Part shown: positions 2,513 through 63,289 of the stretch, in pieces
Numbering within the stretch: position 1 is the stretch's first letter
Layout of the letters: the number at the start of each line of letters is the position of its first letter
Source: an uncultured Candidatus Saccharibacteria bacterium
GTDB taxonomy: Bacteria; Patescibacteriota; Minisyncoccia; Phycocordibacterales; GCA-2401445
Direction: 5' to 3'
DNA length: 64,000 nucleotides
NCBI GenBank assembly: GCA_964436015.1
Contig: CAYTAR010000002.1
Span: 9,521 to 73,520 of the forward strand
Program-made: the position numbers and the translations under genes
The notes under the pieces: generated by a model
What the model was told of the DNA's origin: nothing
Databases searched by the model: none
Seen by the model: the letters and a program-made list of their open reading frames with translations, nothing else

Positions 2513-2537
2513 ATTCTACAGAAAAATAAGGTTTTAT

Positions 2538-2867: not shown

Positions 2868-2868
2868 A

Positions 2869-3003: not shown

Positions 3004-3168
3004 AGGGTCAAGTATATATTAAAGATTATTTTTTGCAACACATACCAACATACACTCGTCTTTGGGTAATCAACAGACTGTACACAGGTTATGAACAAGA
3101 CGTGCGTTTGGTCAAGTCTATCCATTTTTTCTCACACATATATAATAGGTGAACAATAATATATTTAT

Positions 3169-4515: not shown

Positions 4516-4754
4516 CTGTGGAAAGAGTGTTGAGTGTGTGGGGAAATTATTGTTAATAACTCGGTATAACTGTATCGGTTATACCCATAAAAATAATATA
4601 AGAAAAATACATACTCATTATTCCTATATCATACATATTTTTTCCCCACATATTTATTTATAAAACCTATGTATACCAACACTTAATTTACTAATCCACA
4701 TATCCCCATGTATAGTATTGGTATGAAATTAATTAATAAAAATAAACTACTAGT
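4516..4754. other. candidate oriC (dnaA-dnaN intergenic region; DnaA-box-like motifs plus an AT-rich stretch)
   Basis: TGTGGAAA at 4517-4524. TGTGGGGAAA at 4537-4546 has its exact inverted partner TTTCCCCACA at 4641-4650. TAATCCACA at 4692-4700. The segment between the boxes is strongly AT-rich. Confidence 0.6.
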
Positions 4755-5855: not shown

Positions 5856-5856
5856 C

Positions 5857-6114
5857 ATGGCACTTCAGGGAATTACTCTTTTTCTTGAACGGTTTAAAAA
5901 ACTCAAAGCGCCAGAGAAGTATGTAAAAGAAGCGGTACAAAAAGCAGTGCAGGATATTTGTCTACTTACTATCCCTGTAGAGCAAATCTCAGTGTCAAAA
6001 AAAGGGGTTTTTATTTCTACTCACCCGCTCATTAGAACAAAAATTCACCTGGACAAGGAGTCCATAGAAAAGAAAATAGAAGAGTATTTAGTGAAAAAAA
6101 TAAATATTCACTAA
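5857..6114 (+). CDS. small protein, possibly DUF721/DciA-like
   Basis: 85 aa, starting 2 nt after the dnaN stop. The position and the ISVSKKGVFISTHPLIRTKIHLDKESIEKKIEEYL pattern recall DUF721. Weak. Confidence 0.35.
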   Translation: MALQGITLFLERFKKLKAPEKYVKEAVQKAVQDICLLTIPVEQISVSKKGVFISTHPLIRTKIHLDKESIEKKIEEYLVKKINIH

Positions 6115-15793: not shown

Positions 15794-18158
15794 AAAAACA
15801 GATAAAACAAGAATAATTCTTCTTGATGTACATGCAATTTTGCATCGTGCGTACCATGCGCTTCCCGACTTCTCTACTTCGGGCGGTATTCCAACTGGGG
15901 GCCTCTACGGAGTGTCTCTCATGTTGTTAAAATTGATTGAAGATTTTTCACCCGACTACATTATTGCGTGTTATGACTTACCAAAACCAACGTACCGCCA
16001 CGAGGTATACAAAGAGTACAAAGCGGGAAGGGTAAAGTCTGATGATGAGCTGGTGGTGCAAATTCAAAATTCACATAAGATTTTTGATGCACTTCATATT
16101 CCCATGTACAGCTGTGAGGGGTTTGAAGCGGATGATATGTTGGGAACTATTGTTGAACAGACAAAAAAGCAGAAGGATTTGGAAATAATTATTGCATCGG
16201 GTGATATGGACACACTCCAGCTTGTAGATGATAAAAAGGTACAAGTATACACGCTTAAAAAAGGCATTAAAGATACTATTTTGTATGACGAGGATAAGGT
16301 AAAAGAGCGGTTTGGTTTTGGTCCTGAATTACTCCCAGATTATAAAGGGTTGCGTGGTGACCCGTCGGACAATATTGTTGGAGTGCGAGGTATTGGAGAG
16401 AAGACCGCCACCGAGCTTATTATGAAATTCGGCACGTTGGAGTCTCTGTACAAAGTAACAAAGAAAAACCCCGATGCTCTCATTAAAGAGGGAATTAAAG
16501 AGCGTATGGTTGGGTTACTTGTAGAACATGAAGAGGAGGCATTGTTTAGCAAGATGCTTGCGACCATCAGACGAGATGCGCCTATTACCTTCACGCTACC
16601 AAAAGAGAAGTTTAAAGATATGCTTGATTTGGAGAAAGCAGACGCCTTTTTTCGAGAGTTTGAGTTTAGAACACTTGGTCCGCGGTTGCGTCACGTGCTC
16701 GGTATAACAAAAGAAGAGGAACAGACTCAAAAAAATACTTCACAGGTAACAGAAAACCCAGATGACACCGCGAGGGTTCAGCTGAAATTGTGGGTTTTGG
16801 ATTCAAATCATAGCCACGCGACGGTAGATGATGTGTATGCATACACAAAAACGACAACACTCAATGATGCAGAAAAAATAATTAATGACAGGTTGCATGC
16901 TGAAGATTCATATCGTGTGTATGAAGAGATAGAGAAGCCACTTATTCCCATAATTACAAAAATGCAGGAGAAGGGCATCATGATTGATCGTTCGTACTTC
17001 GCAAAACTTGGTGAGGATTATCACCACAAGCTCTCCGTACTAGAGAAAACCATTCATGCTGACGCGGGAGTTTCATTTAATATAGCTTCACCAAAACAAC
17101 TCGGTGAAATTCTTTTTGAAAGGTTGGGTTTGAAAGGGAAAAACCAAAAAAAGACCGCAGGTGGTGCGCTTTCTACCAAGGAGTCAGAGTTGGAGAAAAT
17201 GCGCGACATGCATCCGATTATCGGAAGCGTACTTGAGTACCGAGAGTTAGCAAAGCTTATTGGTACGTACGTGGATGTGCTTCCAACACTTGCTGATGCG
17301 AGTGATCGTATTCATACCACATTTGATCAGTGTGGAGCAGCAACTGGACGTATGGCATCTCGCGATCCTAATTTACAAAATATTCCGAATAAAACTGAAT
17401 TAGGGAGAGCAATACGAGGCGGGTTTGTTGCGGAGTCTGGATACGCACTTGTCGCGATTGATTACTCGCAAATAGAACTTCGGATTGCCGCGTTTCTCTC
17501 AAAAGATGAAAAACTTATTTCAATTTTTAAGAACAATGAAGATGTACATACCGCGGTAGCGTCCCAAGTGTTTAAAGTAAAAGAGAGCGAGGTTGATTCC
17601 GAGATGAGACGAAGGGCGAAGGTAATTAATTTCGGGATTATTTACGGTATGGGAGTAAACGCACTTAAACAAAATCTTGGGTGTGACCGTGCTGAAGCGC
17701 AAGCGTTTTATGAAGCATATTTTAATACGTTTAACGGGTTGGCAGAGTATTTGGAAAAAGTAAAAGAGTCAGCGCACCGTTTAGGTTACACCACGACTTT
17801 TTTTGGGCGAAGGAGGTACTTTGAGGGAATTCGTTCAAAGATTCCTTTTATTCGTGCATCTGCAGAGCGCATGGCGATCAATGCACCGATACAAGGTACT
17901 GGGGCTGATATTACCAAGCTCGCAATGATTGCGAGTGACGCGTTCATACGAACCCTTAAGAATACAGATGATGTTCGGCTATTGCTTCAGGTGCATGATG
18001 AACTAGTGTTTGAGGTAAAAAGTGATTTGGTTGCAACAATTATTCCAAAATTAAAAGAATCGATGGAGGGGGTAATTGATCCTAGTCAAACCGAAGGGGT
18101 GGTGTGTAAGACTGAGGCGTCAGTGGGGAGTAACTGGGGTGCACTAAAAAGAGTATAA
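15786..18158 (+). CDS. polA: DNA polymerase I (5' nuclease + polymerase domains; short central region)
   Basis: Motif A DYSQIELR, motif B RRRAKVINFGIIYG, motif C QVHDELVFE. N-terminal 5'-3' exonuclease region GVRGIGEKTATELI. Confidence 0.9.
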   Translation: MSKKTDKTRIILLDVHAILHRAYHALPDFSTSGGIPTGGLYGVSLMLLKLIEDFSPDYIIACYDLPKPTYRHEVYKEYKAGRVKSDDELVVQIQNSHKIFDALHIPMYSCEGFEADDMLGTIVEQTKKQKDLEIIIASGDMDTLQLVDDKKVQVYTLKKGIKDTILYDEDKVKERFGFGPELLPDYKGLRGDPSDNIVGVRGIGEKTATELIMKFGTLESLYKVTKKNPDALIKEGIKERMVGLLVEHEEEALFSKMLATIRRDAPITFTLPKEKFKDMLDLEKADAFFREFEFRTLGPRLRHVLGITKEEEQTQKNTSQVTENPDDTARVQLKLWVLDSNHSHATVDDVYAYTKTTTLNDAEKIINDRLHAEDSYRVYEEIEKPLIPIITKMQEKGIMIDRSYFAKLGEDYHHKLSVLEKTIHADAGVSFNIASPKQLGEILFERLGLKGKNQKKTAGGALSTKESELEKMRDMHPIIGSVLEYRELAKLIGTYVDVLPTLADASDRIHTTFDQCGAATGRMASRDPNLQNIPNKTELGRAIRGGFVAESGYALVAIDYSQIELRIAAFLSKDEKLISIFKNNEDVHTAVASQVFKVKESEVDSEMRRRAKVINFGIIYGMGVNALKQNLGCDRAEAQAFYEAYFNTFNGLAEYLEKVKESAHRLGYTTTFFGRRRYFEGIRSKIPFIRASAERMAINAPIQGTGADITKLAMIASDAFIRTLKNTDDVRLLLQVHDELVFEVKSDLVATIIPKLKESMEGVIDPSQTEGVVCKTEASVGSNWGALKRV

Positions 18159-48506: not shown

Positions 48507-50447
48507 ATGATAATCGATAGACCAAAACAGCTGAAAACAGTAGAAGATGCTCTCACTATAAATATGAGAAGTTTTTCGGTGTATCGCATATTAAGTAATT
48601 CATTCAGAACAAGTTTTATGTATCGCGGGCTCGGGAGTCTTTTACTACTCTCGGTGTTAGCTCCCTCAGTGATTCCCGTTTTTGTATATGCTGACGAGAT
48701 ACCAGTAGCTACAGTAAGCACTTCAACCAAAGAGTCTATCGTGCAAGTGGACGTAGATCCTGTTGCTAAGGTTGATTCAAAAGCAGAAGAAACCATCGTT
48801 CCTGTAGATGATTCAGATGAAGGGGGTGTTGAGGAAAATGTGTCAGAAGAGAGTGGTGTTGAGATTAATGATTCTAGTATAGAACATGAGGAGATAGAAG
48901 AAGGTGATGTTAAGGAAAGTGTAATAGAGGAAGAAATCCAGCTGATAGAAATTGCAAGCTCAACGTTGTCTGTTGAGGATGTAAGTGCTACTAGTACCCC
49001 CGCAACCTCAACTCCAATAATAATGAATGAGGAGTCTCAAGTTGGTACTACTACAGTTAGTACTTCCACAACAACACTCGTAGCGAGTACAACAAAAAAT
49101 GAAATAGAAATTTCAGAGGATGAGGGAGTGGCAACAAGTTCTAATAAACTTACGGAAGAAGGTAATACTGCGGGCGCGAGCGGAACAAGCTCGCCCATGT
49201 TAACTGTTGATCCGGCAGACCTTATACCTCCTGATATTACTATTGTTGGCAATAACCCGGCGTTTGTGGCTGTTGGTGTGCAGTATGTTGATCAAGGAGT
49301 CCTTGTAAATGACAACAAAAGCAATAACTTGGGCCACACAATTCGTGTAAATGGTATAGAGGTTGATACGGTAACGCTTGATACAAGTACCACCAGTGAA
49401 TACGCAATAACTTATGTGGCGGTAGATCAAGATGGAAATACAGCAGTGGCAGTCCGAACGGTATTTGTTGGTATCGCAGAAAGTAGTATAGGGGAAGGCG
49501 TGTTAATGGAAAATGGTGTTGCGGGAGGAAGGGCTTCTTCAACTACAGATACCGTTGATGTGGTTTTTGAAGAAAACCATGATTTTGTACCCCAACAAAA
49601 TATTGAGTTTAATCTTTTGAATAAACATGTGTTTTCTGAATCTGATTGTGTGGTAGTGGGGAACGGTGAGTTTTACTGCGTAACCTCTGAGGATGCAAGA
49701 ACAAAGACAACAAACAACACTTCTCCAGTAGTGTTTGCAAAAAAATCAGACCAAGGGAATAAAGAAATATATTTCAATAATGGAGAATCACTTGTACAGA
49801 TCACTAACAATGACTTTGATGATGATCGACCCGTGTATGATGCAATTACTGGTATCATTGTGTGGCAATCACTCCGAGGCGATCGTTTGCAAATAGTATC
49901 CTACAATACCGTAACGGGAGTTGAGGTGGAGATTACTAATACTCCATATAACAACAGCAACCCTCATGTGCAGGGAACGACTGTGGTGTGGCAAGGGTGG
50001 GTAAATAATAACTGGGAAATATTTGTTGCTGATGCGACACGGAAAGCAGAAGACACTCTAGAGCCGGTAACGCGTAATGTGTGGAACGATATGTTTCCAC
50101 AGGTAAAGGGAGATATTGTCACCTGGCAGTCACGAGTAAATGATGCATGGAAAGTGTTTATCTATGATATCCGTACGAAAGAAATATCCGAGGTGGCTGT
50201 TCCTGCTGGGGGAAGTATTGAGAATCCCCGATTCGTTATTTTAGTTGAAAACAGACTTACGAATGGTGATGTAGAGACTTATGGGTATGACATTACTACG
50301 AAAGAAACATTTCCACTTGGTGCAGAGCGAAGGGCTACGCAAGAGATTCCAGAAAATCCGGCACAAACGGAGCCAACCGTGCTTCCTGTGGTGCAGGAGG
50401 TTAGAGCTCCGAAAGACGATGAGGGTGGAGTAGATGATACATTATGA
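48507..50447 (+). CDS. surface protein: acidic linker, Ig-like (DUF5011-like) domain, beta-propeller-like repeats
   Basis: Signal anchor LGSLLLLSVLAPSVIPVFVYA. PPDITIVGNNPAFVAVGVQYVDQGV..YAITYVAVDQDGNTA. Repeated xVWQ blades (IVWQSLRGDRLQIV, VVWQGWVNNNWEIF, IVTWQSRVNDAWKVF). The start may be internal (48564 or 48618). Confidence 0.7.
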   Translation: MIIDRPKQLKTVEDALTINMRSFSVYRILSNSFRTSFMYRGLGSLLLLSVLAPSVIPVFVYADEIPVATVSTSTKESIVQVDVDPVAKVDSKAEETIVPVDDSDEGGVEENVSEESGVEINDSSIEHEEIEEGDVKESVIEEEIQLIEIASSTLSVEDVSATSTPATSTPIIMNEESQVGTTTVSTSTTTLVASTTKNEIEISEDEGVATSSNKLTEEGNTAGASGTSSPMLTVDPADLIPPDITIVGNNPAFVAVGVQYVDQGVLVNDNKSNNLGHTIRVNGIEVDTVTLDTSTTSEYAITYVAVDQDGNTAVAVRTVFVGIAESSIGEGVLMENGVAGGRASSTTDTVDVVFEENHDFVPQQNIEFNLLNKHVFSESDCVVVGNGEFYCVTSEDARTKTTNNTSPVVFAKKSDQGNKEIYFNNGESLVQITNNDFDDDRPVYDAITGIIVWQSLRGDRLQIVSYNTVTGVEVEITNTPYNNSNPHVQGTTVVWQGWVNNNWEIFVADATRKAEDTLEPVTRNVWNDMFPQVKGDIVTWQSRVNDAWKVFIYDIRTKEISEVAVPAGGSIENPRFVILVENRLTNGDVETYGYDITTKETFPLGAERRATQEIPENPAQTEPTVLPVVQEVRAPKDDEGGVDDTL

Positions 50448-53400
50448 CCCTACGCGCATTGAGAAGAATTTGGGTGAATAAAAAAAAATGGGGAGCACGC
50501 ACGGTGGCGGTTTTTATTGTGTTCACTTTTTTGTTTTCTGATATCTCACAGTTTATTCGTATACCATGGGGTACTATTTTCAGAGCTGAAGCTGCACCTG
50601 TTTTGATTGAGGATACACTCACCATAGTAGATGACTCCATGTTGAATACTTCACCCACAACCGTTTTTATCAGTGATACGGTTGGGTATACTTTTTTTGT
50701 AGATAATGGAAATGCGTGTAGGTATGCCTCAACAACAGATGCGGGGGCTACATGGAGTCTGGCATACACCGTTGACTCGGTTAATACGACAGATTGTTTT
50801 CGTGTCGCGGTGTGGTATGACCAATGGACTCCTGGAGATGATACCGGTACGGTGATACATATTGCAACTCTCGATACGGGCGATGATGATATTTTCTATA
50901 CATCACTTAATACCGTAACTAATCAACTTTCCACAACAGTGATCGCGACAAATCAGGCGGGTACATTTGCTGCGGGTACTAACTATCATTCAATTACGAA
51001 AGGTGGTGATGGAAACTTGTACATGGCTGCAAATGATGCATCGGACAGTTGGATAGTTCGGTGTACGGGCACCTGTACGAGTGCGGGTAATTGGTCAGAA
51101 ATTGCTAATCCGTACGAATTACAGAATGATTGGCCACTTCTTGTGCCGCTTTTGAATGGAAACATAATGACCATACGAATGGATTTATCAGGAAATGATT
51201 ATGACTATAACATTTGGAATGGTTCTATATGGAGTGGATGGACAACTATCTTAACAACCGCGGGTGAGAATGCAACTTTTGATGCTCATTTTGGGGCAAC
51301 GATAGATAAGAGAACAGGGGATGTGTACTTTGTTGGGGTAACTGATAATGCGACGTTGGGAACCGATGACGATATTCGTACCGCATACTACAACCACCAT
51401 AACGGTACGTGGAGTGTGATGGGTAATGTGCTTACTAATGATACAAAAGGTATACGAGACGCTAAAATATTTTTTGACCAGAATTCTGGAGATGTGTATG
51501 TTACCTATTCCGCACTCACCACTCCAAATAGTGCGACAACTGGTAATGTGTACTATAAATATTCAACTGACGGTATGGTTTCGTGGAGCAGTGAGGTACA
51601 GGTAAATACCGTCTCAGGCAACTTGTTTGGTGCGGGACACAATAACTTAATGAGTACTGAGCGTGCATATGTTACATGGAAAAACATATCGGGCGATGAT
51701 TTGTTTGGAGAGACTGTAGTTAATCTTTCTCCGCCTGCGCTTGAGCAGTACTCATATCGATGGTACGAATCTGCGACAAGTACTGCTCCAGGTGCACCTC
51801 TTGCAAATGCAAACACGACCGCAACGTCAACAGAGAGGGGTACGCCATTTCGTCTCCGTATCGCTCTCGATATAGACGATTCAAAAATTGCTTCCAGTTC
51901 TCTCTCTTTTAAACTTCAATATGCAGAGCGGAGTGGGATTTGCGATATTTCTTTTACCGGGGAAACGTACACTGATGTTCTTACTTCAAGTGGGGCAGTG
52001 AGATTTTATGATAATACTGGTGTTGCCTCTGGGGTACAAGCGACGGTGTCTGCGAACGAACCTATTCCGAGTGAAGGTTCTTTTTCTTACCAGTCATATA
52101 TTGAAGGTGGGACATTTACTAATACGTATGGAAGTATCGCAACGAGTAGCGACGGCCTATGGGATTTTTCTTTAATCGATATTTCTTCACCTGAAGAAAC
52201 CCGGTACTGCTTCAGAGTGGTGTATGCGGACGGTAGCACGCTTGAATCATACTCTGTAATTCCTGAACTTATTACCCCATCGCGTCCACCAATTGTTACT
52301 CAGGCGCATTTTCATTTCAGAAATGATAACGGAGGAGAGGATGATGCAACGTCAGCTACAGGAGGGGTTGAGGATACAAATCTTTTTGGTGTATTTCCAA
52401 CCACCACAATACGTATGCGTATTGGAGTTGAAAATAGAGGGTTAAGCACATCAAGTCCAATTCAGTATCGTCTTGAGTACGCGGAAAAAGGCGCGAGTTG
52501 TGAAGTAAGTACAGGCTGGACTGATGTTGGAAGTTCTGGAGGAGCTTTCAATATGAATCCAATTGCAAACTTAACAGAGGGAGGAGATACTACAGATATT
52601 GCGATTGCGTTAGGAGGTGTGAGTACTAATGAATCTTATTTCGTAAGTCCAAACGGTGGTGTTCGAGATACAAATTCACAGACCAGTGCCATAACGCTTG
52701 GTCCTGATGAGTATACTGACCTTGAGTATTCAATTACCGCGACAGGTGACTCAAATGAGGGAACAACATACTGTTTTAGGATAACCGATGCAGGGTCGGT
52801 GATTGATAGTTATAGTGTGTATCCACAGATAACTATGGCTGCTTCAGTAGAAGTATCAACTATCGGTAGTCAGGTGACATCAGTCAATGCAGGAACTAAT
52901 AATTTTTATGTGGGTGGAGCTTTTGTGATAACTGATGGAATAGGAGGGCATTCTGTTACGAGTATTACCATTGCCGAACAGGGAACCGTAGATGCTGGAA
53001 GTAATATAGAAAACATACGCTTATACTACGATCTTGATACGACATTTCCATATGATTGTAGTAGTGAGTCATATGGGGGAGGTGAGTTGCAGTATGGCGC
53101 CACAAGTACCAGTTTTTCCTCCGCAGATGGGACCGCAACTTTTAATGGGTCAGTAGGCATCGATACTGATCAGTCATTATGTTTGTATGTAGTGCTTGAT
53201 ATTGCGAGTGGAGCGAGTGACGGCGAGACTCTTGAAATAGAAATTCCAAATGCAAGTACTGATGTTGTGGTAAGTGATAATCCATCAATTTCACCAACTA
53301 CCTTTGTTCGTTTAGCGGATACAACAACCATAAATAGCTCTGTATTAGATATGACTCATTTCCATTTTAGAAATAATGACGGAGGGGAGGGTGATGCAAC

Positions 53401-56400
53401 GTCAGCTACAGGAGGAGTTGAGGATACGCCGGTGACTGATTTGAGAAAAAACACACCAATACGTCTAAGGTTGCAGGTCGCTAATAGCGGAGGAGTGGGG
53501 GCATCTTCCTTGGCACTTCGTCTTGAGTATGGGGTGAAGGTGAGTTCGTGTAGCGCGGTTTCTGTATGGCAAGATGTCGGTGCCACTGAGGGGGATTGGG
53601 ACATGTATGATTCAACATTTCTTACTGATGGAGACAATACTACGGATATCGTACTTGGTATTGGTGGGGTGAGTAATGAGGGGGTAGATTTTCTTGATGT
53701 GAATGGTGGGGTAAAGGATACTTCCTCTCAAACTGCTCCATTTACGTTGGCTCCAAATGAGTATGTAGAACTTGAGTATTCAGTGTTCGCAACTGCTAGT
53801 TCAACAGCAGAGGGTGAATACTGTTTTCGGGTAACGAACCAAGGCACTCCACTTAATGTGTATTCAGTGTATGCAGAAGTAAGTATTGCTCCAAATCAAG
53901 ATTTTTTCATACAACGCGGTTTTGAGATTGTGAGTGGTACCAGTACTATTTTATACGCGGGAATAGATTACACTCCGCCACGGTTGGGTGGTCGTGCGTT
54001 TGTACGTATCACTAATACGCATCACACAGGCGCAGGGGACGATGATGGGGGAGGAACTCAGAATGCTGATGATGTAACCGCGTACATACTGAATCCTCAG
54101 GATATCGCTACCAGTATTACCATTGCGCGACCAGCGGCAGCGACAATAAATACTGGAGTAGCGTGGGAAATAGTTGAGTATCAAGGCTACCCAGGTGGAG
54201 GTAATGAAATGGTCGTACGCGAACAGGGAAATATATCCATGACAGGTTTATTTGCTACCACATCACCAATAAGTGGGGTGAGTAGCGACAGTGATGTAGT
54301 CGTGTTTATTACTGGAGCAATGACTCCTGATACTGGTACCGCTGATTACAATATGATGCAGGCAGTATCATCGTGGGATGTTCAAAGTCAGAGTGCGGTG
54401 TTTGAGCGAGGTGAGTCAGGAGACACTATCACTCTCAGTTATGCGGTGGTTGAATTTACTGGAAGACATTGGCGTGTGCAACGAGTTGCGCATAATTACT
54501 CGTCTGCTGTTGGCGCAGAGACGGAGACAATACCCTCTTCACTTAACAGTGTTTCTCGTGCATTTTTGCATACTCAGAAACTTGCTGGTGTGGGTGAGCA
54601 GGGCCTGGACGAATTTGGGCATACGGTTTGGATTTCTGGGGTTAATGAAATTTCATTTCAATTACAAAGCGGTGTAACCACACCAACCGCACACCGCTCG
54701 GTTGCATGGGTGATTGAGAATACGCAAGTTAATGGAACTCCAATGAATGTAATACAGTCAAGCGGTACTCAAAGTGGAGGAGCGGAGCCCAGCGTTGCAT
54801 CAATTGATATTGGCACTACGGTGGTTAGTATGGATACAACTTCTGTATTTACTAATTCTCGAGTGAATGGCACAAATACTGCATTCCCAAGACCGATACT
54901 CGCCGTGTATTTAATTTCCCGTACACAGTATCAATTTTGGATTAGTGATACAGGTGGGACGGTAACCTATCAAACTGAGGTGGTTGAGTGGCCAACTGCG
55001 CCAAGAAAGATAACCCAAAACTATTACCGAATATACGTGAATCAAGACACACTACTTCCGTCTGATGTGTGGCCGCAAGGAGCATCATCAATCGGGGAAA
55101 ATACAGTACTTTCACTCAATGATGTGCCTATTGATAGTGGAGATGTTATTCGTATACGTATGTCGGTGTTGGTTGAACAGGGGAATTTACCGGTGAACTA
55201 TCAATCATTTCGTTTGCAGTTTGGTGAACGCGAAACAACATGTTCCGCGGTAAGTGTGTGGCGCGATGTAGGACAAGTGGGAAGCACAACTGCATTATGG
55301 CGCGGATACAATAACGGCAGCGTCACAGATGGGGCAACGCTCTCAAGCGATCCTCCAAATGGAGGAGATTTGGTACTATCAGTTTCTGATAGAGCTGGTA
55401 CGTATGAGGAGTCAAATAATTCCGCGGTGAATCCATTTCCGGTATTCGCGGGAGAAGATGTTGAGTATGATTGGGTTGTTGAAAATAATGGAGCTTTGGA
55501 ATTGACACCGTACTGTTTCCGTATGGTTGAAGCAAATGGTTTGATGCTTGATGACTACGCTTACCACCCAACAGTATTTACCGCTGGGTATGAGGCGGTG
55601 AGCGAAGACTGGCGTTGGTTTGATGATGCTGAAAATGAGACTCCTCTATCAGCTCTTTCTCCAGAAAATTCTGCACCTATTGGAGTAGACTATGATACTA
55701 CCGTACAGTTGAGAGTGTTACTACATGAAATTGCAGGAAAAACTGGACCTCAATTAAAACTCCGTCTTCAGTTTGATGAGTCGGCAAGTTTTACCAATCC
55801 GCAGTTCGTCTCGAATGCGCTTGATTGTGCAGAAGGACTATCTCTCTGGTGTTATGCAGACGGTGGAGGAGTTGATAATGCAACCATAACGACCGCAGTT
55901 TTGACCAATGCAGATTCGTGCGTATCTGAAGTTGGTGATGGATGCGGAACGCACAATGAGCTTGCTACAACGAGTAGTTTATTTACTCATCAACCCAATG
56001 CAAACACAGAGTTTGCGTTTACCATTCGACATGTAGGAGCGCGTGCGAATACAGTCTATTTCTTCAGGATATATGATGTAACCAATGATAGATATGTGAG
56101 TGCAAGCACTACAAAAACGTACCCAAGCTTAGTTACTGAGGGCGCTGGACTTACGTTTACATTAAGTGGTGTTTCTTCGGGTGTAATAACTGAAGGTATC
56201 ACCACTGATAATGCAACAACTCCATACCATATTTCATTTGGCACGCTTCCTTTAAATACGGAGGTTGAAGTGGCGCAACGCCTCACCGTCACCACTAACG
56301 CAACCGAAGGATACCAAGTATTTATGTTTGCAAGGCAAGGATTGTTGTATGATACGGAAGAAATTACTCCAATTACTTCACTTAACTCAAACCCTTTGGG

Positions 56401-56665
56401 GTGGTCTCTTGGGTGCGATACTGGTTCTGTAACTGGTTGTTTCGGATATCATACAGGAGACGATACTCTTGCAGGTGGGTCGGTTAGATTTTCAGCAGAC
56501 GATACGTACGCTCGTTTGACTACGTCACCCCAGGAGATTATTTACAGCTCGCGTCCGGTTATAAACGAATCAACTGACGTGATCTTTAAAACGTGGGTAA
56601 ATGCAGATCAGCCTGGAGGGCTTTATGAGAGTAGTGTGGTGTATATTATTGTCCCTGTATTTTAA
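50444..56665 (+). CDS. giant surface protein (2073 aa): BNR/sialidase-like N-domain, five ~180-aa repeat modules, WxL-like C-terminal domain
   Basis: N-terminal TM/signal helix VAVFIVFTFLF. BNR-like STTDAGATWS and YSTDGMVSWS. Five modules each end in YCFR/YFFR. The last 170 aa are homologous to the C-terminal half of the 59565 and 60943 proteins. Confidence 0.85.
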   Translation: MTLRALRRIWVNKKKWGARTVAVFIVFTFLFSDISQFIRIPWGTIFRAEAAPVLIEDTLTIVDDSMLNTSPTTVFISDTVGYTFFVDNGNACRYASTTDAGATWSLAYTVDSVNTTDCFRVAVWYDQWTPGDDTGTVIHIATLDTGDDDIFYTSLNTVTNQLSTTVIATNQAGTFAAGTNYHSITKGGDGNLYMAANDASDSWIVRCTGTCTSAGNWSEIANPYELQNDWPLLVPLLNGNIMTIRMDLSGNDYDYNIWNGSIWSGWTTILTTAGENATFDAHFGATIDKRTGDVYFVGVTDNATLGTDDDIRTAYYNHHNGTWSVMGNVLTNDTKGIRDAKIFFDQNSGDVYVTYSALTTPNSATTGNVYYKYSTDGMVSWSSEVQVNTVSGNLFGAGHNNLMSTERAYVTWKNISGDDLFGETVVNLSPPALEQYSYRWYESATSTAPGAPLANANTTATSTERGTPFRLRIALDIDDSKIASSSLSFKLQYAERSGICDISFTGETYTDVLTSSGAVRFYDNTGVASGVQATVSANEPIPSEGSFSYQSYIEGGTFTNTYGSIATSSDGLWDFSLIDISSPEETRYCFRVVYADGSTLESYSVIPELITPSRPPIVTQAHFHFRNDNGGEDDATSATGGVEDTNLFGVFPTTTIRMRIGVENRGLSTSSPIQYRLEYAEKGASCEVSTGWTDVGSSGGAFNMNPIANLTEGGDTTDIAIALGGVSTNESYFVSPNGGVRDTNSQTSAITLGPDEYTDLEYSITATGDSNEGTTYCFRITDAGSVIDSYSVYPQITMAASVEVSTIGSQVTSVNAGTNNFYVGGAFVITDGIGGHSVTSITIAEQGTVDAGSNIENIRLYYDLDTTFPYDCSSESYGGGELQYGATSTSFSSADGTATFNGSVGIDTDQSLCLYVVLDIASGASDGETLEIEIPNASTDVVVSDNPSISPTTFVRLADTTTINSSVLDMTHFHFRNNDGGEGDATSATGGVEDTPVTDLRKNTPIRLRLQVANSGGVGASSLALRLEYGVKVSSCSAVSVWQDVGATEGDWDMYDSTFLTDGDNTTDIVLGIGGVSNEGVDFLDVNGGVKDTSSQTAPFTLAPNEYVELEYSVFATASSTAEGEYCFRVTNQGTPLNVYSVYAEVSIAPNQDFFIQRGFEIVSGTSTILYAGIDYTPPRLGGRAFVRITNTHHTGAGDDDGGGTQNADDVTAYILNPQDIATSITIARPAAATINTGVAWEIVEYQGYPGGGNEMVVREQGNISMTGLFATTSPISGVSSDSDVVVFITGAMTPDTGTADYNMMQAVSSWDVQSQSAVFERGESGDTITLSYAVVEFTGRHWRVQRVAHNYSSAVGAETETIPSSLNSVSRAFLHTQKLAGVGEQGLDEFGHTVWISGVNEISFQLQSGVTTPTAHRSVAWVIENTQVNGTPMNVIQSSGTQSGGAEPSVASIDIGTTVVSMDTTSVFTNSRVNGTNTAFPRPILAVYLISRTQYQFWISDTGGTVTYQTEVVEWPTAPRKITQNYYRIYVNQDTLLPSDVWPQGASSIGENTVLSLNDVPIDSGDVIRIRMSVLVEQGNLPVNYQSFRLQFGERETTCSAVSVWRDVGQVGSTTALWRGYNNGSVTDGATLSSDPPNGGDLVLSVSDRAGTYEESNNSAVNPFPVFAGEDVEYDWVVENNGALELTPYCFRMVEANGLMLDDYAYHPTVFTAGYEAVSEDWRWFDDAENETPLSALSPENSAPIGVDYDTTVQLRVLLHEIAGKTGPQLKLRLQFDESASFTNPQFVSNALDCAEGLSLWCYADGGGVDNATITTAVLTNADSCVSEVGDGCGTHNELATTSSLFTHQPNANTEFAFTIRHVGARANTVYFFRIYDVTNDRYVSASTTKTYPSLVTEGAGLTFTLSGVSSGVITEGITTDNATTPYHISFGTLPLNTEVEVAQRLTVTTNATEGYQVFMFARQGLLYDTEEITPITSLNSNPLGWSLGCDTGSVTGCFGYHTGDDTLAGGSVRFSADDTYARLTTSPQEIIYSSRPVINESTDVIFKTWVNADQPGGLYESSVVYIIVPVF

Positions 56666-56673
56666 TACTATAT

Positions 56674-57690
56674 ATGTCTATTTGGTATACTAGAGGTATG
56701 AGATTATTTGTTCTAGGATTCATATGTTTTGTGAGTGCATTTTTTATTACGCCAGAAATTGCATTTGCAAAGTACATACAAGTATCACCTATTGTAATAA
56801 ATAAAGATTTGCAAGCTCGTGATATTATCCGTGAACAAGTGGTACTGAAGAACACCTCTCCTGCAAAGTTAAATGTGTATACATTTGTTAACAATGTTAC
56901 TTCTGGAACGGAGGGGGGTATTGAGGCATTTCTTGATTATCAACAATCAGAAAAACAAAAGTCGTTGGCAAACTGGATTGAGATTTCACGCGGAGTGATT
57001 GAATTGATGCCAGGAGAAGAAAAAGAAATTGAATTTATTATTAAAGTGCACCATGAGGCTACTCCAGGCGATTATCATGCATTGATTTCTTTCGGAACTG
57101 GAACCAATAGAGATGAGGCTGAACAGCGCCTTACACGAGAGTCATCGGTGATGGTTGTTGGGTCAGTAGTGAAAAATACAAGAGAGCTCCTTCAGGTGAA
57201 AAAATTTACCGCGGGGAATTTATTTTTTTCAGGAACTGATGCGGAGTTCACATACACCCTTCAGAATAATGGTGATGAGGTAATTATCCCTGATGGAGAA
57301 ATCTTGCTTTATGATAGGCGTGGAATTGAGATTGGTGCAATGCGCGTTAACGGACAGGGAGAGAGTATCTTGCCAGGGGAAGAAAAGGAGTTTGTTTCAA
57401 CATGGAGCGGTGAATATAGTCTCGGTCGGCACAAGGCGTACTTGAGTGCAGTGTATGGTGCACAGAAGAAAAACTTGACTGATACCACCTACTTTTTTAT
57501 GTTGCCATGGAAGCAGTTATTACTGTTGTTTACTGTACTTATGTTCTTTACGGTGTATGTTATGCATGTGATTCACGATAAATTTTTTCAAAAGAGAAAA
57601 AAACAGGTTCAATTCAACCGTGTATCTCGTCCAGTAACGCCTCCGGTCCCAGGGGTTGGTGTGATTAATCTCAAACAATATGAGGATTAA
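56674..57690 (+). CDS. CscA-like surface protein (DUF916/DUF3324-like Ig domains + C-terminal TM anchor)
   Basis: Signal peptide. YIQVSPIVINKDLQARDIIREQVVLKNTS..WIEISRGVIELMPGEEKEIEFIIKVHHEATPGDYHALISF. A second Ig-like domain. C-terminal TM helix LLLLFTVLMFFTVYVMHVI followed by a KR-rich tail. Confidence 0.6.
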   Translation: MSIWYTRGMRLFVLGFICFVSAFFITPEIAFAKYIQVSPIVINKDLQARDIIREQVVLKNTSPAKLNVYTFVNNVTSGTEGGIEAFLDYQQSEKQKSLANWIEISRGVIELMPGEEKEIEFIIKVHHEATPGDYHALISFGTGTNRDEAEQRLTRESSVMVVGSVVKNTRELLQVKKFTAGNLFFSGTDAEFTYTLQNNGDEVIIPDGEILLYDRRGIEIGAMRVNGQGESILPGEEKEFVSTWSGEYSLGRHKAYLSAVYGAQKKNLTDTTYFFMLPWKQLLLLFTVLMFFTVYVMHVIHDKFFQKRKKQVQFNRVSRPVTPPVPGVGVINLKQYED

Positions 57691-59365
57691 GTCGGCACAC
57701 AACAGTTGGTTTATAAGGGTAGGAATTGTATTAGTTTTAGTGTGTAGTATTGGATTTTTTTCTTCTTACACGCACGCCCAGGCACCCGCGTCGCTCTCAT
57801 TAAGTGTCACCCCTCCTTTGTTCCAACTCACTACTGCTCCAGGAGAGTATTGGGCGAGCAGTATAAAAGTCATCAATGCCAATTCATATCCATTAACCAT
57901 TGTTGCTGAAGTGGTTAGGTTTGATGCGAGTGGGGAAAGTGGTAATGCTAAATTTTTACCTGTACTTGGCACAGAAGGTGAAGGTAGCACACTTGCGGAT
58001 TGGATTACTCTAGAAGAAATTGAGTTAACTATTCCACCTGAGCAAAGTGCGGTAGTTCCATTTTCAGTACGTATACCACAGGACGCTCCTCCAGGAGGGC
58101 ACTATGCGGCGATACTCATTGGGAATAAATCTGTAAAAGAAGCGGGAGCAGGTCCGCAAGTCGGAGTGTCATCTTTTGTCTCCTCTTTGTTATTTGTTCG
58201 TATTGCGGGTGATGTTGTTGAAACAGGTTCTATTAGAGAATTTTCAGCAGATTCTCTTTTTTATCAAAAGCCAGAAACTTCTTTTTCATTACGGTTTGAA
58301 AATACAGGGAATGTTCACTTGTTGCCACAAGGTGAAATCACCATTTACAACATGTGGGGAAAGGAGAGAGGAGTAATTCCGATAAATCAAAAAACAGATT
58401 TTGGAAACGTACTTCCTCGGTCCATACGAAAATTTGATTTTACTTGGGCGGGGGAGCAAAATCCTCTTGAAGTAGGAAGGTTTTCAGCTGTAGCGATTCT
58501 TACCTATGGGCAGGAGGAAAGAAAAAGTGTGTATGCAAATACGTACTTTTGGGTGATACCCGTGATACCGGTGCTGATTGTCCTCGCTTCAATTTTTGGA
58601 ATTATTGTTTTTGTATCATGGATGGTTAAGTTGTATATCAGACGCGCTCTTGAGCTCCGAGGTATATACATGAATCCTGATGATTTTTTGTCTCCACATA
58701 TGAACACGTCAAAGGTGGATATGAAGATGCTGGTAAACCCTGTTGTGGAAGGAGTTATGGATTTACGTTCAGCTACTTTTCGTGATTCTCTTAGACATAA
58801 GAAAGATATTGTAGAGCCTGCCTCTATGACATATAAAGATTTCTTTAAGAAGTACAAGCGTTTCTTTGTGAGTGTGGCAGGACTCACAATGGTTGTGTTT
58901 ATTTTTATGTTTTTCTTTACTCACGTTCTCGTTCCCGAGCGTGCATTTGATATTACCTTGAATAAGGAAGATGGTGAGGTATCTATTAGTTCGGAGGAGC
59001 TCATTAAGGATAAGCTAGATGAGCAGAATAATTATTTTAATTCAAGTCAAGAAGAGGTTTCTTCTAATATTGCTTCTGGCGAGGTTCAAAGGATTACTAT
59101 TGAATTATTAAATAACACGGGAATTCCAGGCAGGGGTGCTGAGATTGCAGTACTACTTGAACAGAATGGATACAGGATTCAGAAGGTCGGTAATAGTAAT
59201 GAAGAAATGGAAGAAAATCGGGTGTACGGTAATTTTACTGATCCACTTATTGTAGAAGTCATTCAAGATGTTGAAAATATTACCGATAAAGTTTTTACGC
59301 AGATTGATTCAGGGTACACTCAAGGTCAAGCAACAAACACTCTTGTTTTTATTATTTCAAAGTAG
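57680..59365 (+). CDS. CscA-like surface protein with TM anchor and a C-terminal LytR_C-like domain
   Basis: SLSVTPPLFQLTTAPGEYWASSIKVINAN..WITLEEIELTIPPEQSAVVPFSVRIPQDAPPGGHYAAILIG. TM helix VIPVLIVLASIFGIIVFVSWMV. C-terminal RITIELLNNTGIPGRGAEIAVLLEQNGYRIQKVGN. Confidence 0.6.
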   Translation: MRIKSAHNSWFIRVGIVLVLVCSIGFFSSYTHAQAPASLSLSVTPPLFQLTTAPGEYWASSIKVINANSYPLTIVAEVVRFDASGESGNAKFLPVLGTEGEGSTLADWITLEEIELTIPPEQSAVVPFSVRIPQDAPPGGHYAAILIGNKSVKEAGAGPQVGVSSFVSSLLFVRIAGDVVETGSIREFSADSLFYQKPETSFSLRFENTGNVHLLPQGEITIYNMWGKERGVIPINQKTDFGNVLPRSIRKFDFTWAGEQNPLEVGRFSAVAILTYGQEERKSVYANTYFWVIPVIPVLIVLASIFGIIVFVSWMVKLYIRRALELRGIYMNPDDFLSPHMNTSKVDMKMLVNPVVEGVMDLRSATFRDSLRHKKDIVEPASMTYKDFFKKYKRFFVSVAGLTMVVFIFMFFFTHVLVPERAFDITLNKEDGEVSISSEELIKDKLDEQNNYFNSSQEEVSSNIASGEVQRITIELLNNTGIPGRGAEIAVLLEQNGYRIQKVGNSNEEMEENRVYGNFTDPLIVEVIQDVENITDKVFTQIDSGYTQGQATNTLVFIISK

Positions 59366-59564: not shown

Positions 59565-60704
59565 ATGAATAGCACATACGTATTTGAGCACATCAAGACC
59601 CATAAGTATCTAGCACTCATTGTGTTAGCGGGACTCTTAATGTGGTCAGTCGGCTTGCCTGCGTGGGCACCCATGGCGCAAGCAGCAGCACTCACCAACT
59701 TCAGTGATACACTCACTGATTCGGACGTGAGTGCACCATCTAATCACACGATTGCCTATACGACACCAAACGGTGTCTCGGCAGGAGAGACGATTGTGAT
59801 TACGTTTCCTGCAGGGTTTAACTTAAGTGATTTGTCGTTTAACGACATTGACTTATATGCAGGATCGGAACGAACACTTGGGTCTTCACCTTCAGGTGCA
59901 ACGTGGGGGGTTGCGACAACGTCAACCACTATTACGTTCACTTCAGGAACAGACACTATTGCGTCAAGTACTGCAGTCGTGATTGAGATAGGTACACATG
60001 CAACAGCTGGTGCAACGGGGGATACACAGATTATTAATCCAGGGTCACCTGGCACGCAAATTATCAACGTGTCATCGGGATCAGGAATTGATTCTGCGGA
60101 TACCCGCGTCTACATCATTGATGATGTTGTGGTCACTGCTTCAGTTAACACCACCTTCCTCTTCTCCATCACTGGAGTAGCGAGTGGTGCATCAGTTAAC
60201 GGAAGTCCAACAACCACTGCAGATACAACCACATCAACATCGCTTCCGTTCGGAACACTTAACGCGCTTCAGTCAAAAACTCTTGCGCAAGATCTTTCAG
60301 TAACCACTAACGCAGCAAACGGCTTCGTAGTAACAGTACAGCAAGATCAAAATCTTCGTTCCGCAACGAATGCAGATATTGATGGGTTCATTGATGGGGC
60401 GTATACAAACACTCCAGCTGCATGGGTACAACCATCAGGGTCCCTTGGACAAGAGTGGACATACGGTCACTGGGGTTTAACATCAGAAGATGCTGATTTA
60501 AACACTGATGAATTCGGATCCGATTTGTGGGTTGCAGCGTCAACTACACCTCGGCAAGTCTTCTCACACAATGCACCGTCAAATGGTACAACACCAAACA
60601 GTGGTTCTACCCGAGTCGGTTTCCAGATTGAAATTACTTCACTTCAGGAAGCTGGTACGGACTACACGAACACACTGACGTACATTGCAACGCCGACGTT
60701 CTAG
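59565..60704 (+). CDS. secreted protein with a variable N-domain and a WxL-like C-terminal domain
   Basis: Signal peptide ending AQA. AALTNFSDTLTDSDV. The C-terminal half FLFSITGVASG..FGTL..LSVTTNAANGFVVTV..AGTDYTNTLTYIATPTF parallels the WxL-domain layout. Confidence 0.6.
   Translation: MNSTYVFEHIKTHKYLALIVLAGLLMWSVGLPAWAPMAQAAALTNFSDTLTDSDVSAPSNHTIAYTTPNGVSAGETIVITFPAGFNLSDLSFNDIDLYAGSERTLGSSPSGATWGVATTSTTITFTSGTDTIASSTAVVIEIGTHATAGATGDTQIINPGSPGTQIINVSSGSGIDSADTRVYIIDDVVVTASVNTTFLFSITGVASGASVNGSPTTTADTTTSTSLPFGTLNALQSKTLAQDLSVTTNAANGFVVTVQQDQNLRSATNADIDGFIDGAYTNTPAAWVQPSGSLGQEWTYGHWGLTSEDADLNTDEFGSDLWVAASTTPRQVFSHNAPSNGTTPNSGSTRVGFQIEITSLQEAGTDYTNTLTYIATPTF
60101..60704 (+). repeat. 604-bp exact direct repeat, copy 1 (copy 2 is 61491-62094)
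   Basis: A line-by-line comparison of both copies found no mismatch. Identity starts at TACCCGCGTCTACATC and ends at the TAG stop. Confidence 0.9.
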
Positions 60705-60721
60705 ACGTACTTAGAGCACGC

Positions 60722-60750
60722 AAAAATCCGCTGTAAAGCGGATTTTTGTT
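60722..60750 (+). terminator. intrinsic terminator
   Basis: AAAAATCCGC-TGTAAA-GCGGATTTTT. Confidence 0.75.
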
Positions 60751-60942
60751 TGTCTGAGACAGTGTGTCCTTGAAGTTAAGGTTGTCTTTTATGTTCGTTA
60801 TCCACAACCAGAAAAGAATTTTTGATAAAAGTCAATTATACTGTACATATTACTGGCGTGTGTCTTTTACACATAAGGTGAGTGGTTGTGAGACTGAGGG
60901 TCATCAGTAGCACATAGATTATCAAGTATATAGTTTATTAGT

Positions 60943-62094
60943 ATGAGTACATATTTTATTTTACACCATATGCGAGGAGGCAAGGCGGTAGGAGCAGTGC
61001 TCCTAATCGCGCTTCTTGCGTGGTCAGTCGGTGCGCCGGCATGGATGAATGTTGCACAAGCAGCAGCACTCACCAACTTCAGTGATACACTCACTGATTC
61101 TGATGTGGGGGCGTTAAGTAACCACACAATTGCGTTCACTACTCCAAATGGGGTTGATGCAGGACAGACTATTACTGTTACCTTCCCAGGAGGTTTTGGT
61201 CTTGGGTCTATAACTGAGGATGATGTTGACATTGATAGTGCAGGAACTCCGCTCACTACTGCAGCGGATTGTTCGGGAAGTGAGGAGGCTGGGGTTGGTA
61301 TTTCAGGACAAATTATTACGATTGATATTTGCTCCGGAGATGGAGGGGACATTGCGTCTTCTACTGCGGTGGTAATTAGAATTGGAACGAATGCGGTTGA
61401 TAGTGGAACAGGAACAAACCAAATTACAAACCACGCAACTCCAGGTACATATATTATTGCAGTTGGAGGGACAATGCAGGATTCAGGTTCTACCCGCGTC
61501 TACATCATTGATGATGTTGTGGTCACTGCTTCAGTTAACACCACCTTCCTCTTCTCCATCACTGGAGTAGCGAGTGGTGCATCAGTTAACGGAAGTCCAA
61601 CAACCACTGCAGATACAACCACATCAACATCGCTTCCGTTCGGAACACTTAACGCGCTTCAGTCAAAAACTCTTGCGCAAGATCTTTCAGTAACCACTAA
61701 CGCAGCAAACGGCTTCGTAGTAACAGTACAGCAAGATCAAAATCTTCGTTCCGCAACGAATGCAGATATTGATGGGTTCATTGATGGGGCGTATACAAAC
61801 ACTCCAGCTGCATGGGTACAACCATCAGGGTCCCTTGGACAAGAGTGGACATACGGTCACTGGGGTTTAACATCAGAAGATGCTGATTTAAACACTGATG
61901 AATTCGGATCCGATTTGTGGGTTGCAGCGTCAACTACACCTCGGCAAGTCTTCTCACACAATGCACCGTCAAATGGTACAACACCAAACAGTGGTTCTAC
62001 CCGAGTCGGTTTCCAGATTGAAATTACTTCACTTCAGGAAGCTGGTACGGACTACACGAACACACTGACGTACATTGCAACGCCGACGTTCTAG
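60943..62094 (+). CDS. secreted protein, a paralog of 59565 with a different N-domain and an identical WxL-like C-terminal domain
   Basis: Shares AAALTNFSDTLTDSDV after the signal peptide. The last 604 nt are identical to 60101-60704. Confidence 0.6.
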   Translation: MSTYFILHHMRGGKAVGAVLLIALLAWSVGAPAWMNVAQAAALTNFSDTLTDSDVGALSNHTIAFTTPNGVDAGQTITVTFPGGFGLGSITEDDVDIDSAGTPLTTAADCSGSEEAGVGISGQIITIDICSGDGGDIASSTAVVIRIGTNAVDSGTGTNQITNHATPGTYIIAVGGTMQDSGSTRVYIIDDVVVTASVNTTFLFSITGVASGASVNGSPTTTADTTTSTSLPFGTLNALQSKTLAQDLSVTTNAANGFVVTVQQDQNLRSATNADIDGFIDGAYTNTPAAWVQPSGSLGQEWTYGHWGLTSEDADLNTDEFGSDLWVAASTTPRQVFSHNAPSNGTTPNSGSTRVGFQIEITSLQEAGTDYTNTLTYIATPTF

Positions 62095-62119: not shown

Positions 62120-62155
62120 AAGAATTACACCCGCGAATGCGGGTGTAATTCTTTT
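62120..62155 (+). terminator. intrinsic terminator
   Basis: AAGAATTACACCCGC-GAAT-GCGGGTGTAATTCTT followed by TT. Confidence 0.75.
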
Positions 62156-62209: not shown

Positions 62210-63289
62210 ATGACATTTATACTACGAAACGATCGCACACTATTCAATATACTATTATTTTTTGTACTGAGTATTATTGGGCTTGCTTGCTTGCCCACTT
62301 CAGTGTTTGGGCAGTCAAGCTCAGGTATTAGAGTGCAGCCTTCGTTTATTGAAGAGGCGGTTAATCCGGGGGATACGTACAGTGAAATACTTCAGATAAA
62401 AAATGAGAGTGATGTTGAGGAAACATACTATGTAAGTGTGAGGAATATAAAAGGATTAACTGGTAATGATAATGCTCCAGTGTTTGCAGATGAAGGTGAA
62501 GTCACTGGGCTTGAAGTTGCTTCATGGGTTACTCTTTCAGCAGACAGTGCGACCGTTCTGCCTGGTGAAACCGCACAGATTCCTTTTAGTGTTGTGGTAC
62601 CGAAAGATGCGTCTCCGGGGAGTCATATAGGAGGAATATTTGTGACACGGACCCCTCCACGACTACGTGAGACTGGAGCAGGAGTGGGTATTCAAGTAGT
62701 CAGTATTCTTAGTATGAAAATAGGGGGAGATGTAATTGAAACTGCGCGTATCAGAGAGTTTTCTTCTGATAAAAACATATACAGTACCCCGAAAGCAGAA
62801 TTTACCGTAAGTGTAGAAAATGAGGGAAATATTCTGATTAGACCACAAGGGTTTATAGAAATAACTAATATGTTTGGCGAGCGGGTTGCTCAGCTTAAGA
62901 TTAATGAACGAGCAGGTGCGGTGTTACCAAAAGCGGAACGTAGATTTTCAGTGGAGTGGGAGGGGGATAGTCTCTCTTTTGGAAGATATCAAGTACATGC
63001 AGGTCTGGTGTTTGGAGATTATGGAAGACAGAATATTGAAAGTAATTTATTTATCTGGGTTCTTCCTATGAAAATTATCACGCCTTTTCTTGGCGGACTG
63101 CTTTTCCTTGTGTTTGTAATTTATATCAGTATTCGGATACATGTCAGAAATAAGTTACGTACTGTAGAGAGAACTCATGCACGATTTGTTCATGATGAGG
63201 CGCCGTTGTCAAAATTGACTTTCATTGCTGTCGCAGTACTTGCGTTTACAATTCTTTTCCTGCTAGGAGTGTTTATCTTTTTCGCATAA
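62210..63289 (+). CDS. CscA-like surface protein (third paralog) with C-terminal TM anchors
   Basis: The start MTFILRNDRTLFNILLFFVLSIIGLACLPTSVFG at 62210; the track start at 62075 lies upstream of a terminator. GIRVQPSFIEEAVNPGDTYSEILQIKNES..WVTLSADSATVLPGETAQIPFSVVVPKDASPGSHIGGIFV. Confidence 0.6.
   Translation: MTFILRNDRTLFNILLFFVLSIIGLACLPTSVFGQSSSGIRVQPSFIEEAVNPGDTYSEILQIKNESDVEETYYVSVRNIKGLTGNDNAPVFADEGEVTGLEVASWVTLSADSATVLPGETAQIPFSVVVPKDASPGSHIGGIFVTRTPPRLRETGAGVGIQVVSILSMKIGGDVIETARIREFSSDKNIYSTPKAEFTVSVENEGNILIRPQGFIEITNMFGERVAQLKINERAGAVLPKAERRFSVEWEGDSLSFGRYQVHAGLVFGDYGRQNIESNLFIWVLPMKIITPFLGGLLFLVFVIYISIRIHVRNKLRTVERTHARFVHDEAPLSKLTFIAVAVLAFTILFLLGVFIFFA

Follow-up and report, generated by a model that had tools for sequence, protein, structure and literature searches.

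A tandem pair of pilin-like genes with identical C-terminal halves bears the marks of gene conversion in a Patescibacteria genome

Tandem filament-subunit genes can evolve in concert, as Meinersmann and Hiett are said to have described in 2000 for flaA and flaB of Campylobacter; gene conversion in bacteria generally is reportedly the subject of work by Santoyo and Romero from 2005. Neisseria uses many silent, promoterless pilS donors to diversify the variable part of the pilin encoded at pilE. Here, we analyze a 64,000-nt stretch of DNA (the window; contig CAYTAR010000002.1 of assembly GCA_964436015.1) in which two adjacent genes, A and B, encode pilin-like proteins and share a long exact repeat at their 3' ends. 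The most relevant described fiber is the Pam pilus of Ca. Mycosynbacter amalyticus, built from PamA and PamB (WP_260763287.1, WP_260763280.1) and characterized by cryo-electron microscopy in 2026. Pam pilins comprise an N-domain, a strand that forms the linker, and, at the C terminus, a truncated immunoglobulin (Ig) domain that serves as acceptor; assembly proceeds by donor-strand exchange and involves PapD-like chaperones that are membrane anchored. The taxa covered are mainly Saccharimonadia and Microgenomatia, and Paceibacteria go unmentioned (Troman et al., bioRxiv 10.64898/2026.03.03.709456). Also relevant are WxL clusters, which combine small proteins, a large protein sharing their C-terminal domain, and DUF916-like transmembrane (TM) proteins; among these, WxLIP is predicted to contribute a strand that completes the sandwich of WxL (Hassan, Chaudhuri & Williamson 2023, PMC10599100). 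We consider it likely that A and B are tandem paralogs homogenized by gene conversion, and that their products are shaft-type subunits of a surface fiber of the Pam-like, donor-strand type in a Paceibacteria-type host of the candidate phyla radiation (CPR; Patescibacteria).

The A and B proteins can be aligned end to end (Table 1). At an offset of 1,390 nt, their genes contain a single long exact run (60101-60704 and 61491-62094), identical at 604 of 604 positions. It opens with ACCCGCGTCT at codon 180 (T-R-V-Y-I-I-D-D...) and its last base is the final G of the stop codon, TAG; the flanks 3' of the two stop codons are unrelated to each other. Nearer the 5' ends lies a 44-nt string that occurs exactly twice, at 59679 and 61057. 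Between the short and the long block are 126 codons in A and 130 in B. A first-pass annotation, made from the letters of the DNA and a list of open reading frames (ORFs), had described both blocks and the approximate length of the diverged stretches, and these descriptions hold. Other parts of it need correction. The N-terminal domains, which it called unrelated, are homologous (51% aa identity over 121 residues, E 7e-30) and have one family-wide fold; the direct repeat that it gave as 1.39 kb measures 604 bp and recurs with a period of 1,390 bp; and the export signal it regarded as constant differs between A and B, the common part being restricted to the region of cleavage and the first mature strand. 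Neither block occurs a third time in the window, and tblastn recovered no partial or silent copies there.

The history of the pair can be read against a sister locus, L001, in the metagenome-assembled genome (MAG) Ca. Paceibacterota LejiaA_42_15 (GCA_040879725.1), where gene order is kept over >15 kb and includes the tandem pilin pair. We denote the window genes W_A and W_B and their sister counterparts L1_A and L1_B. N-halves are 55% identical at the nucleotide level (53% aa) between W_A and W_B and 59% between L1_A and L1_B, and reach 68% (69% aa) between W_B and L1_B. C-halves, by comparison, are identical within the window and 93% identical within L001, and fall to 74.7% (W_B/L1_B) and 74.5% (W_A/L1_A) between the genomes. 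Neighbor-joining trees divide along the same line: the N-half tree groups W_B with L1_B at 100% bootstrap and within-genome pairs at 0%, and the C-half tree groups W_A with W_B and L1_A with L1_B, each at 100%. Because the N-halves pair B with B across genomes and the C-halves pair by genome, the duplication appears to be older than the split, with the C-halves homogenized separately in each lineage.

Synonymous divergence (dS) gives the same picture. Within the window, the C-half has a dS of 0, compared with 0.20 within L001 and 1.31 between the genomes; for the N-half, dS is ~2, which is saturated. Among codons that specify the same amino acid, 43-53% are identical in all comparisons outside the tracts, as against 200 of 200 inside the window tract and 165 of 187 inside that of L001. 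The window tract has abrupt edges, flanks at ~55% identity, and a dS of 0 inside, the characteristics by which a conversion tract is recognized. In L001, the tract consists of blocks at 98-99%, 84-88%, and 93-98% identity, a mosaic whose 5' edge lies within ~6 codons of the window tract edge, and this indicates several conversion events of different ages. Chance is excluded as the origin of the 604-nt identity, given that the N-halves are only 55% identical and that orthologous C-halves in the sister genome reach only 74.5%. Taken together, the sequence comparisons strongly support concerted evolution through gene conversion between A and B, recurring in both lineages.

Campylobacter flaA/flaB offers the closest functional analog: there, too, tandem paralogs contribute to one extracellular polymer and are kept alike by intragenomic recombination, so that paralogs within a genome are closer than orthologs between genomes. 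The window pair departs from this analog in two ways. Homogenization is confined to the linker and C-domain plus the 44-nt patch, the other domain having diverged by ~50%, and the product would be a CPR pilus-like fiber rather than a flagellum. Conversion itself is textbook biology, and in this respect the locus offers less a new mechanism than a warning to those who assemble and annotate genomes.

In principle, two copies might be kept identical with no recombination involved if purifying selection acted with extreme strength on the nucleotides themselves, as it could on an RNA element or an overlapping gene, and the C-domain is indeed the more conserved half across the family (mean aa identity 59%, versus 44% for the N-half). 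Yet this same segment has the dS of 1.31 and the 74.5% identity between genomes given above, only ~50% of its aa-identical codons are codon-identical between them, and Rfam finds nothing in the tract. The between-genome synonymous divergence effectively refutes constraint at the nucleotide level, for which we see a vanishingly small chance. The 44-nt block raises the same question on a smaller scale. It amounts to 14 consecutive identical codons, with a chance probability of ~1e-5 to 1e-6 at the background rate, and because the corresponding region is not identical in the L001 pair, it is probably a second, short conversion tract rather than the result of nucleotide-level constraint.

Repeat collapse or mis-joining during metagenome assembly could also produce exact identity, or even the duplication itself. 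The contig, 140,670 nt long, is of MAG type, and a perfect 604-bp repeat exceeds the length of short reads. However, the sister genome, which was assembled independently, repeats both genes and their order, and its C-halves, 93% identical, carry scattered differences of a kind that collapse cannot yield. Within the window, moreover, both genes are intact ORFs with distinct N-halves, upstream regions, and terminators. We therefore rate an assembly artifact as a very slim prospect.

To place the pair in context, we compared 80 loci from GTDB species representatives. Only L001/L002 has the tandem arrangement; in 19 other genomes, two family members occupy separate loci, with ~35-40 kb between them when a single contig holds both. 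In these 19 genomes, the excess identity of the C-halves, expressed as a residual z score, lies between about -1.3 and 1.4 apart from a single value of 2.4, while the tandem pairs reach 5.8 and 4.4. The tandem pairs thus stand out and the separate-locus pairs do not, so homogenization belongs to the tandem pair, as expected for conversion that depends on homology and distance. Homogenization of the C-domain across the whole family was considered and rejected, since separate-locus paralogs show none.

The separate loci have features of their own. Two single-pilin loci ~35-40 kb apart on one contig are a recurrent spacing in many Paceibacteria-type genomes, and two-locus pairs include L010/L070, L011/L017, L018/L035, L034/L062, L036/L038, L057/L078, and L061/L079, among others. 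The mildly raised value belongs to L034/L062, whose C-halves are 79% identical (z 2.4). No second pilin locus of this kind was found within the 64-kb window. Ten loci (L027, L029, L031, L032, L038, L048, L067, L070, L071, and L078) form a "Cys-type" subfamily, which in at least five other genomes is the second pilin at a separate locus. Its traits, a Cys pair (alignment columns 239/269) and a 2-aa insertion, are also found in pilin B and its L001 ortholog; the Cys pair lies in the N-domain and is missing from pilin A. Overall, the B N-half is no closer to the Cys-type subfamily than to Cys-less members. A weak local signal hints that pilin B may have an old mosaic history involving a Cys-type paralog. 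A metagenome scan with pilin B returned no close relatives (best 52%).

These observations bear on a different role for recombination. The first-pass annotation had correctly proposed gene conversion between the tandem genes, which the tree incongruence with the sister genome bears out, and had seen in the constant part a docking module, which would consist of the linker and C-domain. It went on to suggest that conversion or cassette exchange diversifies an exposed domain. Such programmed variation, with conserved flanks as recombination handles and N-domain cassettes exchanged between them, would resemble Neisseria pilE/pilS, and some features invite the comparison: this is conversion in pilin genes, conserved blocks do flank a more variable segment, the Cys-loop motif that the B N-domain shares with a separate-locus subfamily hints at past segmental exchange, and a 604-bp direct repeat could mediate deletion or duplication. 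The direction of the process is nonetheless the opposite, for it is the constant half that has been homogenized, and the variable half has not been shuffled. There are just two full-length, expressed-looking genes, each with its own terminator, and the 64 kb holds no extra or silent copies of the blocks, in contrast to the many donors of Neisseria. The B N-domain has been inherited vertically (69% aa identity to its ortholog, 100% bootstrap), the sister genome has the same two N-domain types in the same order, and N-half dN/dS (the ratio of nonsynonymous to synonymous divergence) is 0.10-0.31, not >1, with dS saturated. Programmed variation is accordingly a highly unlikely account of the locus. 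Deletion or amplification across the 604-bp repeat is, by itself, a real potential in principle.

With homogenization of a constant module as the preferred explanation, the question becomes what that module does. An AlphaFold2 (AF2) model of pilin A (predicted local distance difference test [pLDDT] score 82.5) has a helix at residues 4-28, a confidently modeled beta-sandwich N-domain at 44-184, and a beta-rich C-domain at 198-379 that a coil linker (185-197) joins to it, and an AQA/A cleavage motif can be read in the sequence after the signal-peptide helix. This is the layout of a Pam-type pilin: signal peptide, ~9-strand sandwich, single linker strand, and C-terminal Ig-like domain. Related proteins form a large family, with at least 1,741 clusters (90% identity) at E<=1e-3 among 8,000 candidates scored; members that carry a name come from Ca. 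Paceibacterota, Parcubacteria, Kaiserbacteria, and Nomurabacteria. For many of the related MAGs, the deposited name is "uncultured Candidatus Saccharibacteria bacterium" (binchicken third-party annotation [TPA] assemblies), with close relatives named Paceibacterota, Kaiserbacteria, and Nomurabacteria; the Saccharibacteria label may be generic. Across the family, conservation is highest in the first mature strand (39-56) and around the linker (176-200), the latter with an alternating pattern, V-x-I-x-D-x-V-x-V-T-A-x-V-x-T-x-F-x-F. Pfam returned nothing meaningful for the two pilins and 32 family members, and a profile search against PDB sequences gave no match at E<=10.

The sole NCBIfam match of the pilins is NF058581 (CPR_Pam_pilin_C), with 18.8 bits for A and 20.4 bits for B. 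The same model matches 16 of 32 family members at E<=0.01 (best E 2.5e-5) and 7 of 10 more distant relatives at 19-35 bits. It also matches the C-domain of a giant protein encoded upstream (22.3 bits, E 1e-4, full model 4-148/148) and the L001 ortholog of that protein (36 bits, E 6.9e-9, full model). This pattern is consistent with remote homology to Pam pilins, short of membership by the NCBI criterion, and we regard the family as a divergent, sub-threshold relative. The resemblance extends to organization. Like the window locus, the Pam system is CPR specific, has the linker and C-domain as its most conserved part, places two shaft pilin genes in one operon, and has PapD-like chaperones with a C-terminal TM helix. 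Its tip (acceptor-only) and terminator (donor-only) subunits, PamT, PamR, and PamE, hold part of the module set, as would the candidates for these roles in the window and L001. PamA and PamB differ from A and B in their low sequence identity, A and B having an identical putative polymerization module. Further distinctions are the Paceibacteria-type host, as opposed to mainly Saccharimonadia and Microgenomatia, a tip candidate that is a 2073-aa giant, and a set of three WxLIP-like proteins that includes one LytR_C fusion. Pam-like loci apparently reach into Paceibacteria-type genomes by way of a large, well conserved, unannotated family.

Several points weigh against the proposal as a whole, the first two of which also separate the locus from the Pam pilus as described. 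All NF058581 matches fall below the curated cutoff of 55 bits, and the models for PamC, PamD, PamR, and PamT have no match among the window proteins. Fold searches with the pilin model give only generic Ig-like adhesin and pilin folds. On the side of recombination, recurrence is seen in two lineages, with a single sister genome that has the tandem arrangement, and A-type orthology between the window and L001 is weakly resolved (bootstrap 9%). Finally, an assembler may have merged copies of 95-99% identity into an exact repeat, so that 100% is possibly an overestimate.

In the mechanism we propose, each subunit would carry a Sec signal peptide, an exposed and variable Ig-like N-domain, a linker acting as the donated strand, and a C-domain acting as the acceptor. 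Following a duplication that would precede the split from the sister genome, non-reciprocal homologous recombination would have copied the linker and C-domain repeatedly from one paralog onto the other, the latest event in the window genome being recent enough for 604 nt to remain identical; another tract, 44 nt or more in length, would cover the start of the mature protein. Tracts would end where homology ends. At the 3' edge this is the stop codon, the sequences downstream of it being unrelated, and the 5' edge would be set in the last N-domain strand, where nucleotide identity drops to ~55%. It is possible that this boundary is simply a homology cliff, the slower-evolving C-half alone allowing conversion to initiate and extend, with the stop codon as its limit. 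It is also possible that selection sets it, identical donor and acceptor surfaces being favored and homogenized N-domain surfaces disfavored. With the same polymerization module on both subunits, A and B would be served by the same WxLIP/PapD-like, membrane-anchored chaperones and would be interchangeable in one fiber that displays two N-domain surfaces. Comparable logic operates in chaperone-usher pili (Pap/Fim), which the locus resembles in its chaperone candidates of PapD-like fold, its putative donor-strand exchange, and a tip adhesin with a pilin domain. Unlike those pili, it belongs to a monoderm-type CPR host with neither usher nor outer membrane, its chaperone candidates are membrane anchored, and its two-domain pilins would donate an internal rather than an N-terminal strand. 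The tract, which runs from a few residues before the linker to the last residue, would then be a natural marker of the fiber-subunit unit and would lend independent support to the "linker plus C-domain" model of the Pam polymerization module.

Neighboring genes show how the modules are distributed. The giant secreted protein encoded upstream, a candidate tip adhesin, has the C-domain alone of the pilin modules (E 3e-8 against pilin residues 181-379; tblastn/blastp), and its L001 ortholog lies at 864-7085. A library-wide search at E<=1e-3 found the C-domain module in 416 representative proteins of 66-5,226 aa, at the extreme C terminus among the 150 matches listed, which suggests a general module for docking onto the fiber that carries diverse passengers. 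The complementary combination occurs in L001 at 15851-17695, where a 614-aa protein resembles the pilins in signal peptide, N-domain, and linker (31% identity over residues 13-218), and not in the C-domain. Its C-terminal part is different, with a faint Dockerin match, and downstream of it come genes of cohesin- and dockerin-like type and a protein of 5,649 aa. We consider it a candidate fiber terminator or anchor; an ortholog would fall past the window end. The co-occurrence of C-domain-only, N-linker-C, and N-linker-only proteins in one locus would fit the tip, shaft, and terminator logic of donor-strand pili, as set out for Pam pili in the preprint.

Table 1. Coordinates of the pilin-like genes, repeat blocks, hairpins, and neighboring genes in the window
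Feature	Coordinates	Strand	Description	Basis
Pilin-like gene A	59565..60704	+	379 aa; signal peptide (AQA/A), beta-sandwich N-domain, conserved linker, C-domain	ORF
Pilin-like gene B	60943..62094	+	383 aa; architecture as gene A	ORF, alignment to A
Converted tract, copy 1	60101..60704	+	End of last N-domain strand, linker, whole C-domain, stop codon	
Converted tract, copy 2	61491..62094	+	604/604 identical to copy 1	
44-nt identical block, copy 1	59679..59722	+	Encodes QAAALTNFSDTLTDS: signal-peptidase site and first mature strand	
44-nt identical block, copy 2	61057..61100	+	Exact match to the copy at 59679	
Terminator-like hairpin after gene A	60720..60749	+	13-bp stem, U-rich 3' side; -28.6 kcal/mol, z -6.8	
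Terminator-like hairpin after gene B	62120..62153	+	15-bp stem, then UUUU; -27.8 kcal/mol, z -6.3	
Giant secreted protein, candidate tip adhesin	50444..56665	+	2073 aa; last ~200 aa (56066-56662) are a pilin-type C-domain	
WxLIP-like/PapD-like two-domain membrane-anchored protein, candidate pilin chaperone	56674..57690	+		
Second WxLIP_PGBD-like membrane protein, with LytR_C domain	57680..59365	+	PF13399 26.6 bits (above cutoff); PF06030 14.9 bits (sub-threshold)	
Third WxLIP_PGBD-like protein, C-terminal TM segments	62210..63289	+	PF06030 20.2 bits (sub-threshold); ortholog at same L001 position	

Between the giant gene and the pilins lies the gene for the candidate chaperone, whose product was modeled (pLDDT 87.6) as a pair of beta-sandwiches followed by a TM helix at the C terminus and has EfmWxLIP1 as its best structural match. 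The operon includes a candidate PapD/FimC-like chaperone with a C-terminal TM helix, as the Pam system does. The match to EfmWxLIP1 also leads to the main competing view of what A and B encode, that they are not pilus subunits at all. They could be the CPR counterpart of the Firmicutes WxL/Csc complex, that is, non-polymerizing wall proteins each held by a membrane-anchored WxLIP through strand complementation; conversion would still explain the repeat. WxLIP is defined by DUF916 (PF06030), DUF3324, and a C-terminal TM helix in succession, and three neighbors have sub-threshold WxLIP_PGBD matches. The composition of the locus fits the published layout of WxL (WxL/WxLIP, Csc) clusters (PMC10599100): beside the small proteins stand a large one that has the same domain at its end and one with two Ig domains and a C-terminal TM helix. 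There is even one conserved W-G-L motif in the family (residues 303-305), although the WxL domain is defined by two Trp-x-Leu motifs and Pfam WxL (PF13731) matches 0 of 32 family members at E<=1. Small WxL proteins lack the additional N-domain and linker seen here, and no polymer has been described for WxL proteins. The only family-level match is to the Pam pilin C domain, and a conserved linker, together with relatives that have the C-domain only or the N-domain plus linker only, fits a head-to-tail polymer better. We regard a non-polymerizing complex as quite unlikely and retain the Pam-like fiber as our interpretation.

The WxLIP-like flanking proteins do hint at a link to Firmicutes WxL clusters. 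We speculate, on a reading that we consider unlikely, that the large unannotated Paceibacteria-wide family bridges CPR Pam pili and the Firmicutes WxL/WxLIP (Csc) system as versions of a single, ancient monoderm machine, in which membrane-anchored PapD-like (DUF916-type) chaperones use strand complementation to load subunits and conversion is selectively maintained. Were this so, a donor strand and acceptor kept identical would let two surfaces be mixed freely in one fiber, and the 604-bp repeat would also permit loss or amplification of one subunit. A search of the available literature library found no paper linking WxL to donor-strand assembly, and the Pam preprint contains neither WxL nor DUF916.

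Both pilin genes have a strong hairpin of their own downstream; for the one after gene A, 0 of 200 shuffles fold equally well. Both were detected by folding and missed by a consensus terminator scan. They are consistent with two separately terminated, probably highly expressed genes. The start of the third WxLIP_PGBD-like gene, downstream of B, is uncertain, since the mechanically called ORF opens at 62075, which is within gene B and ahead of the terminator of that gene. Its counterpart upstream of the pilins, at 57680-59365, combines two internal TM segments with LytR_C, an unusual fusion for a chaperone-like protein. Inside that ORF, ARAGORN calls a tRNA-Pyl (cta) at 57968-58043 on the minus strand, which finds no Rfam support at the gathering threshold and is probably a false positive. 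Elsewhere in the window are a SAM (S-box) riboswitch at 28250-28349 on the minus strand (64 bits) and seven ordinary tRNA genes scattered over 19-42 kb.

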